Of a stretch of DNA of 64,000 bases, positions 2,435-4,221 are shown one piece after another. The translations under genes and the position numbers were made by a program. Below the pieces are notes generated by a model. The model was given only the letters and a program-made list of their open reading frames with translations. It made no database searches and had not been told where the DNA came from. Within the stretch, counting starts at the first letter, position 1. Every line of letters begins with the position of its first letter. The DNA is taken from the NCBI RefSeq assembly GCF_013315695.1, contig NZ_CP054353.1; one strand, written 5' to 3'. The stretch is from Escherichia coli. Lineage in GTDB: Bacteria; Pseudomonadota; Gammaproteobacteria; Enterobacterales; Enterobacteriaceae.

Positions 2435-4221
2435 TTATGGGAAACCTGAATGAAACAGAAAAGTGGGAAGAAAATATCTATCAACTGGAGACATCAGATC
2501 CGGTTCTGGGTGGTGCAGACGGGATATCAAATCGAGCCCCCCGGCAACTGGCAAACAGGACGAAATGGCTGAAGAAAAAAACGGAGGAAGCCGCACAGTC
2601 ACTGGCTGAACACGTACGTTCCCGTAACCACCCGGACGCGACACTGACAGCTAAGGGGTTCACCCAACTGAGCAGTGCCACCAACAGCACCTCTGAAACG
2701 CTGGCCGCCACACCAAAAGCCGTCAAGGCTGCATACGACCTTGCAGCCGGCAAGGCGCCCGTCAGCCACACTCACCCGTGGAGTCAGATAACGGGAGTGC
2801 CTGCTGCCTCGCTGACGGCAAAAGGCACCGTACAATTGAGCAGTGCCATCAACAGCACGTCTGAAATACTGGCCGCCACACCGAAGGCGGTCAAGGCTGC
2901 ATACGACCTTGCAGCCGGCAAGGCGCCCGTCAGCCACACTCACCCGTGGAGTCAGATAACGGGAGTGCCTGCTGCCTCGCTGACGGCAAAAGGCACCGTA
3001 CAACTGAGCAGCGCCATCAACAGCACGTCTGAAACGCTGGCCGCCACACCGAAAGCGGTCAAGGCTGCATACGACCTGGCAGCCGGCAAGGCGCCTGCCA
3101 GCCACACTCACCCGTGGAGTCAGATAACGGGAGTGCCTGCGGCTTCACTGACGGCAAAAGGCACCGTACAACTGAGCAGCGCCACGGACAGTCAATCAGA
3201 AACTGAGGCTGCCACGCCGAAGGCGGTCAAGGCTGCATACGACCTTGCAGCCGGCAAGGCGCCCGTCAGCCACACTCACCCGTGGAGTCAGATAACGGGA
3301 GTGCCTGCTGCCTCGCTGACGGCAAAAGGCACCGTACAACTGAGCAGTGCCATCAACAGCACGTCTGAAATACTGGCCGCCACACCGAAAGCGGTCAAGG
3401 CTGCATACGATCTGGCAGCCGGCAAGGCGCCCGTCAGCCACACTCACCCGTGGAGTCAGATAACGGGAGTGCCTGCTGCCTCGCTGACGGCAAAAGGCAC
3501 CGTACAACTGAGCAGTGCCATCAACAGCACGTCTGAAATACTGGCCGCCACACCGAAAGCGGTCAAGGCTGCATACGATCTGGCAAACGGAAAACAACCG
3601 GCAGATGCCACGCTCACTGCTCTGGCAGGACTTGCCACTGCAGCAGATCGGTTGCCTTATTTTACCGGAGCAGACCGCGCAGCGCTGGCAACCCTTACAG
3701 CTATTGGTCGCGCTATTATCGCTAAGGGCAGTATAAAAGATGTCCTCAATTACCTTGGTTTGGGGGAAGGCTCTGCATTGCCTGTTGGTGTACCGGTTCC
3801 GTGGCCCACCGCCACACCGCCAGCAGGCTGGTTACAGTGCAACGGAGCTACGTTCACCAAAGAACAATATCCTGTTCTGGCCAGAGTCTACCCGACCCTC
3901 CGTCTTCCCGATTTACGCGGTGAGTTTATCCGTGGATGGGACGGTGGTCGCAAGGTTGATACCGGGCGTGCGCTACTTTCATTTCAGGAAGGGACTATCG
4001 TATCCGGTTTTGATGATAATGATACCGGAGATATCAGTTCGCTCGGCTCTACACAATACGGATTTGGTGACGCTTTAACCTCTAATCAACTGGGGGTCAT
4101 AAATGGCAAAAAGTGGATATTTGATGCATCCTCTAAAGGTGCACAAAGATATGACTGGTGGGCTTATGTATCAGCTCGCCCCCGCAATATCGCATTTAAC
4201 TATATCGTGAGGGCGGCGTGA
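2431..4221 (+). CDS. Phage tail fibre protein (P2 gpH-like) with internal tandem fibre repeats and invertible C-terminal receptor-binding domain
   Basis: 596-aa ORF; 56-aa repeats carrying the ATPKAVKAAYDLA-type phage tail fibre repeat motif; C-terminal part lies inside the invertible segment and ends ...NYIVRAA. Confidence 0.85.
   Translation: MIMGNLNETEKWEENIYQLETSDPVLGGADGISNRAPRQLANRTKWLKKKTEEAAQSLAEHVRSRNHPDATLTAKGFTQLSSATNSTSETLAATPKAVKAAYDLAAGKAPVSHTHPWSQITGVPAASLTAKGTVQLSSAINSTSEILAATPKAVKAAYDLAAGKAPVSHTHPWSQITGVPAASLTAKGTVQLSSAINSTSETLAATPKAVKAAYDLAAGKAPASHTHPWSQITGVPAASLTAKGTVQLSSATDSQSETEAATPKAVKAAYDLAAGKAPVSHTHPWSQITGVPAASLTAKGTVQLSSAINSTSEILAATPKAVKAAYDLAAGKAPVSHTHPWSQITGVPAASLTAKGTVQLSSAINSTSEILAATPKAVKAAYDLANGKQPADATLTALAGLATAADRLPYFTGADRAALATLTAIGRAIIAKGSIKDVLNYLGLGEGSALPVGVPVPWPTATPPAGWLQCNGATFTKEQYPVLARVYPTLRLPDLRGEFIRGWDGGRKVDTGRALLSFQEGTIVSGFDDNDTGDISSLGSTQYGFGDALTSNQLGVINGKKWIFDASSKGAQRYDWWAYVSARPRNIAFNYIVRAA
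2638..3590 (+). repeat. Tandem 168-bp repeat array (about 5.7 near-identical copies) inside the tail fibre gene
   Basis: Same 168-nt unit recurs at 2761/2929/3097/... (for example gtcagccacactcacccgtggagtcagataacgggagtgcctgc); encodes repeated TAKGTVQLSSAINSTSE(I/T)LAATPKAVKAAYDLAAGKAPVSHTHPWSQITGVPAASL. Confidence 0.9.
3755..3833. repeat. Left inverted repeat (79 bp) bounding the invertible tail-fibre segment; probable invertase crossover site at its outer edge
   Basis: ttggtttgggggaaggctctgcattgcctgttggtgtaccggttccgtggcccaccgccacaccgccagcaggctggtta is repeated as a perfect reverse complement at 5280-5359; outer edge contains a ccttggttt core resembling hix/gix crossover sites. Confidence 0.85.

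Follow-up and report, generated by a model that had tools for sequence, protein, structure and literature searches.

The tail fibre gene of a Mu-like Escherichia coli prophage contains a 168 bp tandem repeat array whose copies are very probably genuine, in-frame structural modules forming the shaft of a trimeric tail fibre, with whole units gained or lost, copy number presumably determining shaft length, and the tip switched separately. The prophage is inserted in dgcQ, and the window (the whole 64,000 nt stretch of DNA that was analysed) covers its last 6 kb. Related prophages lie inside dgcQ, rstB, irp2, lptF and a FHIPEP gene, and beside aroA, katE, clbH, yebS and others; this insertion at many unrelated chromosomal sites is characteristic of Mu-like elements, and annotation of the related record PhiKM includes Mu-like gam, GemA and Mup21 genes. 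The fibre gene and the end of the prophage are organized as follows.

2437-4221, plus strand: tail fibre gene, 594 aa, an open reading frame with six Phage_fiber_2 stretches and Collar (Pfam); the same ORF is present in RefSeq for strains 83972 and AF10.
2437-2637, plus strand: unique N-terminal region, aa 1-67, with almost no variation among the 19 loci compared.
3604-3742, plus strand: constant linker from the array to the crossover site, conserved across loci.
6076-6078: right end of the prophage, beyond which prophages at other chromosomal sites no longer match (query positions 3777-3779).
About 6079-7026: dgcQ without its N-terminus, downstream of the prophage; AF10 annotates a truncated dgcQ.

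The gene had been described as a tail fibre gene from its sequence, and this is supported by several matches. PF03406 (Phage_fiber_2) matches six stretches of the 594 aa product (353.7 bits against a cut-off of 22; E 2.9e-108), Collar is found as well, and the PDB matches are the Mu tail fibre protein S and the T4 gp37 tip. The upstream neighbours are gpW/gp25, Baseplate_J (gpJ) and Tail_P2_I (gpI) genes and a tail fibre assembly gene adjoins. NCBIfam offers no equivalog for any of three products, namely the fibre, its assembly protein and the silent cassette described below. The gene runs from an N-terminal baseplate anchor through the repeat shaft and the linker to an invertible receptor-binding cassette. 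By analogy with Mu gp49, whose N-terminus docks on the baseplate wedge protein gp48 (PMC11915804), the N-terminal region would attach the fibre to the baseplate.

The array is the only one that Tandem Repeats Finder reports across the 64 kb window, at 2665-3585 with a period of 168, 5.5 copies, 92% matches, 0% indels and a score of 1588, and in a repeat search of the array every start-to-start spacing is 168. Within 2638-3590 the identity is 0.91 at lag 168 and 0.89 at lag 336, against a mean of 0.27 (maximum 0.37) at non-period lags; the maximum is 0.31 in 200 shuffled controls and 0.34 in 953 nt segments from the rest of the window. The 168 bp tandem repeat that the earlier note had reported is therefore real, and its estimate of about 5.7 copies at 2638-3590 is accurate, with five full units and a partial sixth in codon register.

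2638-2805, 2806-2973, 2974-3141, 3142-3309 and 3310-3477, plus strand: five full 168 nt (56 aa) units, pairwise identity 84-98%.
3478-3603, plus strand: truncated sixth unit of 42 aa; the first ~108 nt match unit 5 exactly and the sequence then diverges into the linker.
3247-3417 and again 3415-3585 (span 3247-3585), plus strand: a 171 nt exact direct repeat, the longest of the array, seen as a lag-168 run.

The copies had also been called near-identical, which holds for units 2, 3 and 5 (95-98% mutual identity) and for the part of unit 6 that matches unit 5, but not for units 1 and 4, which are 84-89% identical to the remaining units. All five full units differ from one another in nucleotide sequence, and the exact lag-168 runs along the array are 114, 42, 37, 42, 32 and 171 nt long.

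In each 56 aa unit, some 40 aa of Phage_fiber_2 repeat (..KG.VQLSS..S.SE..AATPKAVKAAYDLA.GK) precede a 16 aa spacer with an invariant His-x-His-x-Trp..Ile..Pro pattern (conserved as SHTHPW..ITGVP). Amino acid variation within the unit is mostly at positions 14-22, and AATPKAVKAAYDLAAGKAP does not vary at all. The sense frame stays open through the whole array, 17 of the 19 loci have an undamaged fibre ORF, and 33 of the 56 variable sites among 28 distinct 168 nt unit alleles are at third codon positions, a bias that points to purifying selection on the sense frame. The unit is widespread, being matched by 1684 cluster representatives at E <=1e-3, and a single protein can have as many as 12 near-identical units.

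Two long open reading frames lie on the opposite strand, exactly where they had been predicted.

2599-3111, minus strand: antisense ORF of 170 codons, a by-product of the repeat.
3196-3597, minus strand: antisense ORF of 133 codons in the same frame as 2599-3111, likewise a by-product of the repeat.

Apart from their lengths there is little to recommend these as real genes overlapping the fibre gene, and we give that reading next to no chance. Both are one frame that recurs with the unit and is held open by it, with two stops in between (3112-3195); neither has a Pfam match above threshold (best E 0.004), the RefSeq annotations of 83972 and AF10 have no gene at these positions, and the third-position variation fits selection on the sense frame. 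The earlier suggestion that they are by-products of the repeat is thus well supported.

Every long unit has one HxH motif, which does not vary among the 12 units compared, and the spacer H, H, W, I and P are unchanged even in the most diverged of these, which are only 43-66% identical to those of the window. In solved trimeric fibres with HxH motifs, six histidines drawn from the three chains make up an octahedral iron site (PMC6116203), and by comparison with other phage fibres the His-x-His of each unit probably acts as a metal clamp on the three-fold axis. No structure found or modelled here lends support to the shaft or the clamp. A PDB profile search with the diverged units returned only Mu protein S constructs, which have a single short-type copy and no HxH spacer, and the one published Phage_fiber_2 structure in the literature is a low-confidence contact-based model. 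AlphaFold2, given three copies of a 75 aa segment spanning two HxH motifs with Gly/Ser linkers and a 12-row alignment of diverged units, produced a mean pLDDT of 29 and a pTM of 0.20 for the three linked copies. HxH iron sites are known in the T4 gp37 needle, the R-type pyocin fibre shaft and P2 gpV, but the spacer context in the window, SHTHPWSQITGVP, matches no solved chain.

Downstream of the linker, the receptor-binding end of the fibre lies in an invertible segment.

3743-3768, plus strand: left 26 bp crossover site, TCCTCAATTACC-TT-GGTTTGGGGGAA, with the core dinucleotide at codon 440.
3752-3980: left arm of a 229 nt imperfect inverted repeat, 90% complementary.
3757-4221, plus strand: expressed receptor-binding cassette (Collar, Pfam; ends ...NYIVRAA), with PDB matches to the T4 gp37 tip (2xgf) and a short tail fibre (9cuy).
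4228-4842, minus strand: tail fibre assembly gene (Caudo_TAP), which runs antisense to the fibre gene as the segment is now oriented.
4842-5354, minus strand: silent alternative C-terminal cassette (Collar, Pfam).
5134-5362: right arm of the inverted repeat.
5346-5371, minus strand: right 26 bp crossover site, on that strand GAGAGATAAACG-TT-GGTTTGGGGGAA, identical to the EC958 Phi2 3' site.
5426-5998, plus strand: Gin/Pin-type serine DNA invertase, 190 aa (Pfam Resolvase and HTH_7).

The segment has the features of an invertase switch, namely an adjacent serine recombinase, two inverted 26 bp sites with a shared dinucleotide and an in-frame alternative cassette. The recombinase matches PDB chains named DNA-invertase (3uj3, 4m6f) at E ~1e-92 over 181 aa, and the left site combines the outer half-site of the EC958 Phi2 5' site with the inner half-site of the Phi2 3' site (PMC4134206, Table 3); both sites of the window also agree with the consensus tabulated for such sites. 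Inversion in silico gives an in-frame 611 aa fibre followed directly by the assembly gene, overlapping at TAATG, and this arrangement with its 611 aa fibre is found naturally in AR_0086. Both orientations also occur at one site, as the H105 and WGS1363 prophages adjoin aroA with the cassettes arranged differently and the half-sites swapped exactly at the core.

For array change, the window was compared with 18 related loci (17 of them from complete E. coli genomes); 773 complete E. coli genomes have matches. The 19 loci contain 14 distinct arrays with 3, 4, 5, 6 or 7 units, which are drawn from shared alleles; exact unit alleles such as D4, F7 and E8 are common to different genomes. The closest relative of the window is AF10, with the same insertion site, an identical array and 3 SNPs in 4401 nt; these SNPs lie in the left arm of the inverted repeat, and when they were examined for gene conversion the AF10 base agreed with the other arm at only one of the three. 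KUEC74, whose Tfa, silent cassette and invertase proteins have the same accessions as those of AF10, carries a near-identical prophage with one unit fewer (A1 B2 C3 D4 E6, against A1 B2 C3 D4 B5 E6 in the window), and the unit it lacks is flanked in the window by the 171 nt exact direct repeat. It is likely, from the positions of these repeats, that the KUEC74 array arose by deletion across this repeat. Had a five-unit array instead gained unit 5 by duplication, a crossover within a 3 nt interval would have been needed, so deletion in KUEC74 is the simpler explanation. Elsewhere, loci L005, L006, L007 and L018 contain duplicated units with zero nucleotide differences, and two-unit duplications are marked by exact tracts in L006 (590 nt, lag 336) and in L008 and L012 (326 nt, lag 300); no exact tract in the three-unit ST131 array exceeds 42 nt. 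Each observed change involves one or more whole units. The recent expansion and copy number change proposed from the window sequence are thus supported by the comparison of related prophages that had been suggested as a check.

The earlier note also regarded the array as a likely site of short-read assembly collapse, but we see no sign of this at the locus, and it is highly improbable that the copy number in the window is an artefact of a collapsed or expanded repeat. The concern is reasonable in that exact repeats of up to 171 nt exceed many short reads and draft assemblies often stop within the fibre gene. However, at least eight complete genomes, including two separate 83972 assemblies, contain a same-length, single-piece 1601 bp match at >=99% identity, and they carry it at different chromosomal sites; AF10 has an identical array at an insertion site shared with the window; and no two of the five full units are alike in sequence, so that unit order is resolvable. 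The draft assemblies themselves break mainly elsewhere. Almost all of the best 120 protein matches to the fibre are partial and derive from draft assemblies, and 112 of the 120 continue past the array and end at the inverted repeat of the invertible segment, as opposed to six that end just short of the linker that follows the array. These break points came from a word-indexed protein search for the distribution of copy number, which was useless for counting units.

The same comparisons bear on whether the array is a contingency locus, in which frequent switching of copy number within a culture varies the fibre. Long exact direct repeats are available and one pair of near-identical prophages differs by a single unit, yet this interpretation is very unlikely, since the same array is present in independent genomes and in both 83972 assemblies, and a single span, with three units, is seen in all of the ST131-type matches listed. 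Moreover, classical contingency loci have short repeats that shift the frame or promoter spacing, whereas the 168 nt units are always in frame, and a dedicated switch is already present in the form of the invertase. The array is stable within lineages, not hypervariable.

The most probable account of array change is that exact tracts of 30-170 nt common to the copies act as substrate for misaligned homologous recombination or replication slippage and, because the copies share these tracts, whole units could be gained or lost without breaking the reading frame. We infer RecA-dependent exchange or slippage as the mechanism from the pattern of repeats; there are no Chi sites, as a possible recombination stimulus, in the first 8 kb of the window. 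Across E. coli such events would give fibres of 3 to 7 units from a common pool of unit alleles, and copy number would set the length and reach of the shaft from the baseplate anchor to the receptor-binding tip, in keeping with the report that repeats let fibre length be adjusted (PMC6116203). Receptor specificity is determined separately, by the Gin-type invertase swapping C-terminal cassettes at a 26 bp site about 150 nt downstream of the array.

Whether unit number is itself under selection is a further question. One possibility, less favoured but deserving consideration, is that the differences are neutral drift in often defective prophages, with unit number having no meaning beyond maintenance of a fibre-like shaft. 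Cassette type and copy number are uncorrelated in the sampled loci, so the variation could be selectively neutral, and several carriers are damaged: E302 has an IS66-family element in its fibre gene, the AF10 baseplate gene is frameshifted, and HN68 has remnants of the invertase and tfa. Conversely, the fibre frame remains intact in all but two of the loci, the third-position bias points to purifying selection, all changes are of whole units, and other fibre proteins repeat the unit as many as 12 times, but these points do not establish selection on unit number itself. A more speculative and rather unlikely proposal is that unit number is a heritable length ruler, in which unequal exchange yields 3-12 modules, each long module being one metal-clamped segment, and selection fits reach to the depth of the O-antigen or capsule. 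If so, shaft length and invertible tip would jointly set host range, and copy number would correlate with the surface glycan type of the lysogen lineage.

This combination of modular shaft and switched tip has close parallels. Prophages Phi1, Phi2 and Phi4 of the ST131 strain EC958 have stable 5' Phage_fibre_2 tandem repeats and an invertible 3' Collar region (Forde et al. 2014, PMC4134206), and in Phi2, as in the window, the two parts are fused to each other and an invertase gene lies alongside. The right crossover site is identical in the two; the left agrees with Phi2 in its outer half, and its G-rich inner half is likewise present in Phi2. Phi2 differs in having two silent cassettes in a published invertible segment of 2067 bp, compared with one in ~1.6 kb in the window, and variation in repeat copy number is not discussed for EC958 in PMC4134206. 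The sampled ST131-type prophages (H105, WGS1363 and E302) share the fibre N-terminus and alleles D4 and E8 with the window, but have three repeat motifs rather than six and are inserted beside aroA rather than in dgcQ.

Relationships to other systems are more distant. The Mu G segment (S/S'-U/U', Gin), like those inverted by P1 Cin, e14 Pin and p15B Min, swaps receptor-binding C-termini by inversion as in the window, and relatives with three crossover sites undergo multiple inversions as in the Min system. Mu S also has a constant N-terminal part with the Phage_fiber_2 motif, its residues 112-150 aligning to the unit, but it contains one short-type repeat whereas the fibre in the window has five and a half long units with the HxH spacer. 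The inverted repeats are 229 nt in the window and 34 bp in Mu (PMC4406740), and in the window the assembly protein gene belongs to only one of the two cassettes. A tblastn search locates the Phage_fiber_2 motif in 360 phage records, with P2-like (Peduovirus), P1/P7, lambda and Stx phages among them, and the motif is tandem in many proteins; the PF03406 fibres compared include P2-like gpH, the constant part of P1/P7 gpS, and the side tail fibres of lambda and Stx phages. Most of these other phages have copies that differ more from one another or have no HxH spacer, whereas those in the window are 84-98% identical in DNA.

The array is real but ordinary, and a feature of this type is already known. 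Repeat-rich fibre genes nonetheless mislead automatic annotation, as seen where RefSeq breaks the intact 426 aa ST131 fibre ORF into pseudogene fragments, and together with the adjoining invertible segment they fragment draft assemblies. With an array that is genuine and stable within lineages, copy number is trustworthy and usable as a marker for this prophage family. The principles involved were all established before, and under them the fibre consists of three modules that evolve independently: the baseplate anchor, the shaft, which would lengthen or shorten by unequal exchange, and the tip, which inversion switches.

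Tandem Repeats Finder reports one tandem array in the entire window (2665-3585, period 168, 5.5 copies, 92% matches, zero indels, score 1588), with no second tandem repeat anywhere outside it, and a repeat search of the array gives a start-to-start spacing of 168 everywhere. Within 2638-3590, self-identity is 0.91 at lag 168, compared with a maximum of 0.31 in 200 shuffles and 0.34 in any other 953-nt segment of the window; it is 0.89 at lag 336, and at the remaining lags it averages 0.27 and never exceeds 0.37. The array is in frame with the tail-fibre gene of a Mu-like prophage and is organized as follows.

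2437-4221, plus strand: tail-fibre ORF, 594 aa, containing the array in frame
2638-3477: five complete units in codon register
3478-3603: sixth, truncated unit, its first 108 nt exactly as in unit 5 and divergent afterwards

The 168-bp periodicity, position (2638-3590) and copy number (about 5.7) proposed in an earlier note, read from sequence alone, are thus correct. Its description of the copies as near-identical fits units 2, 3 and 5, which share 95-98% identity, but goes a little too far for units 1 and 4, which are just 84-89% identical to the rest (84-98% over all pairs of full units).

Assignment as a tail-fibre gene is upheld by Pfam, which finds six Phage_fiber_2 stretches in the product (PF03406, E 2.9e-108), a C-terminal Collar domain and a weak PTR match across the spacer, and identifies the genes 5' of it as GPW_gp25, Baseplate_J and Tail_P2_I. 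Each 56-aa unit is made up of a Phage_fiber_2 core, about 40 aa long, and a spacer of 16 aa, SHTHPWSQITGVPA, and 44-aa short units without the spacer are also present in the arrays of relatives. In a PDB search, residues 109-148 of Mu tail-fibre protein S align with the first unit, the C-terminal part of the fibre aligns with the T4 gp37 tip and with a short tail fibre, and the spacer is contained in none of the solved chains. The unit matches 1684 cluster representatives at E 1e-3 or better, with a maximum of 12 near-identical units in one protein, and occurs in 360 phage records, P2-like, P1/P7, lambda and Stx phages among them.

The region is present in 773 of 5426 complete E. coli genomes (megablast). 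The comparison with related prophages that the earlier note proposed was made by splitting into units the arrays of 18 fetched related loci and the window, and 3 to 7 units were found, in 14 distinct arrays among the 19 loci.

Number of units per array in the 19 loci
3 units: PhiKM, H105, WGS1363, E302
4 units: N21
5 units: 504838, AH20I049, KUEC74
6 units: window, 83972, AR_0086, HN68, ECA64, AF10, ECAMP047, EC5654
7 units: AVS0655, AF23, ZH063

The array alters by whole units, and all 19 loci keep the first unit as well as the truncated last one. Nucleotide-identical unit alleles (for example D4, F7, E8 and D31) recur across different arrays, so that these look like varied combinations drawn from one pool of cassettes. 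The 28 distinct full-length alleles differ at 56 sites, 33 of them at the third sense-codon position; amino-acid variation is grouped between positions 14 and 22 of the unit, and all 28 have the segment AATPKAVKAAYDLAAGKAP unchanged. The two antisense ORFs across the array are, as had been suggested, by-products of the repeat: they belong to a single antisense frame that stays open since the unit carries no stop codon in it, and two stops at 3112-3195 separate them. Their best Pfam matches are under threshold, and RefSeq annotates nothing at their positions in 83972 or AF10.

Recent change is seen most clearly in KUEC74, whose array is A1 B2 C3 D4 E6 compared with A1 B2 C3 D4 B5 E6 in the window, and which shares with AF10, the closest relative of the window, the same protein accessions for the assembly protein, silent cassette and invertase. 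The unit absent from KUEC74 is flanked in the window by a 171-nt exact direct repeat (3247-3417 and 3415-3585), the longest in the array, and a one-unit deletion through unequal exchange or slippage would explain the KUEC74 array simply. Gain of a unit by a five-unit array was considered and rejected, as it would require a crossover within a 3-nt interval. Fresh duplications are seen in other arrays: AR_0086 and EC5654 have neighbouring units with zero differences, AVS0655 repeats a two-unit block exactly over 590 nt (lag 336), and in HN68 and ZH063 exact tracts of 326 nt lie at lag 300, the combined length of a short and a long unit. The recent expansion and copy-number change envisaged from the window are thus supported by the single-unit difference in KUEC74 and the difference-free units in relatives. 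The HN68 fibre gene (L008 3638-5521) has the shared N-terminus and array followed by another linker and a C-terminal domain rich in glycine, with tfa and invertase only as remnants, and looks like a recombinant joined at the array end.

Directly downstream of the array is a complete Gin-type invertible segment (3743-5998), with these components.

3743-3768 and 5346-5371: 26-bp crossover sites, at the outer edges of the inverted repeat
3752-3980 and 5134-5362: imperfect inverted repeat, 229 nt, bracketing the segment
4228-4842, minus strand: tail-fibre assembly gene, tfa (Pfam)
4842-5354, minus strand: silent Collar-domain cassette, 170 aa (Pfam)
5426-5998: serine invertase, 190 aa, Resolvase and HTH_7 domains

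The invertase matches PDB 'DNA-invertase' chains 3uj3 and 4m6f (E about 1e-92), and the 26-bp sites correspond to the published crossover sites of the EC958 prophage Phi2 (PMC4134206 Table 3). Inversion in silico yields a 611-aa in-frame fibre followed by the assembly gene, an arrangement carried naturally and exactly by AR_0086. With the region 3757-4842 oriented as it is here, no assembly-protein gene follows the expressed cassette in the sense direction, and the sole tfa gene runs antisense as the partner of the silent cassette. Either the expressed cassette can fold unaided by a chaperone, or the fibres made in this orientation are defective. The switch is a classical Gin/Cin/Pin/Min system. 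H105 and WGS1363 (L003 and L004, about 4450-6500), inserted at the same site beside aroA, have three crossover sites, with inner half-sites that move together with the cassettes; their cassette orders differ, which requires at least two inversions and makes this a multiple-inversion system of the Min or shufflon type.

Collapse of the array in short-read assembly, raised as a possibility in the earlier note, is unlikely. Ten complete genomes contain the window's array type at ≥99% identity, eight of them as one unbroken match, exactly 1601 bp long (two being separate assemblies of strain 83972), and AF10 shares the dgcQ insertion and an identical array, with three SNPs in 4401 nt. The ST131-type three-unit array, in which no exact direct repeat exceeds 42 nt, has a uniform 1097-bp span in all the ST131-type matches listed, and the array is not hypervariable. 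The fibre gene is nonetheless often cut in draft assemblies, which are the source of almost all the nearest database proteins, these being partial. Of the 120 best-matching partial proteins, 112 extend past the array and break off close to the crossover site or within the inverted repeat, and six stop just before the linker that follows the array. Contig breaks are therefore due mainly to the invertible segment and not to the repeat. Mixed orientations of the segment, which gave alternative contigs in EC958 (PMC4134206), account for these cuts.

The three AF10 SNPs all lie inside the left inverted-repeat arm (3801, 3841 and 3915); just one of the AF10 bases fits the other arm, so that gene conversion between the arms is only a possible origin. 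The AF10 baseplate J gene (L015 962-2064) is frameshifted and the window copy (760-1863) intact, reflecting either sequencing error or decay of that prophage copy. RefSeq labels the fibre gene as 'incomplete' pseudogene fragments in H105 (L003 3638-4918), WGS1363 (L004), E302 (L009) and locus L010. That of E302 is truly interrupted by an IS66-family element; L003, L004 and L010 have an intact ORF when translated from the conserved start (426 aa in H105), and their pseudogene calls seem to be an annotation artefact caused by the repeats.

The prophage ends at about 6076 within dgcQ, which lacks its N-terminus (6076-7026), an insertion shared only with AF10 among the genomes found. In other genomes it lies within rstB, irp2, lptF and other genes, or beside aroA, katE, clbH and yebS; these many unrelated sites point to Mu-like transposition, as expected of a Mu-like transposable phage, and the related phage record PhiKM is placed under Bcepmuvirus with Mu-like gene annotation. 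The rest of the window appears to be ordinary E. coli chromosome, with DsrA, three tRNA genes, C0465 and MicL at Rfam gathering scores (8034-8120, 29349-29648, 49302-49379 and 61270-61577).

[quoted passage not shown] 2014, PMC4134206). What is added here is modest, namely a 3-to-7-unit polymorphism drawn from shared alleles, one clear example of change by a single unit, and a correlation of long exact tracts with recent duplication.

A His-x-His motif is invariant even in units 43-66% identical to those of the window and is kept in proteins of other fibre families; its probable role is to bind a metal ion at the three-fold axis, as it does in T4 gp37 and in the fibre of R-pyocin. A model of three linked chains built with AlphaFold2 had a mean pLDDT of 29. 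The array is a series of conserved coding modules between a baseplate-proximal N-terminus and an invertible tip. If the units stack along a trimeric shaft, their number would set the length of the fibre, a mode of length adjustment generally assumed for fibres built from repeats (PMC6116203).
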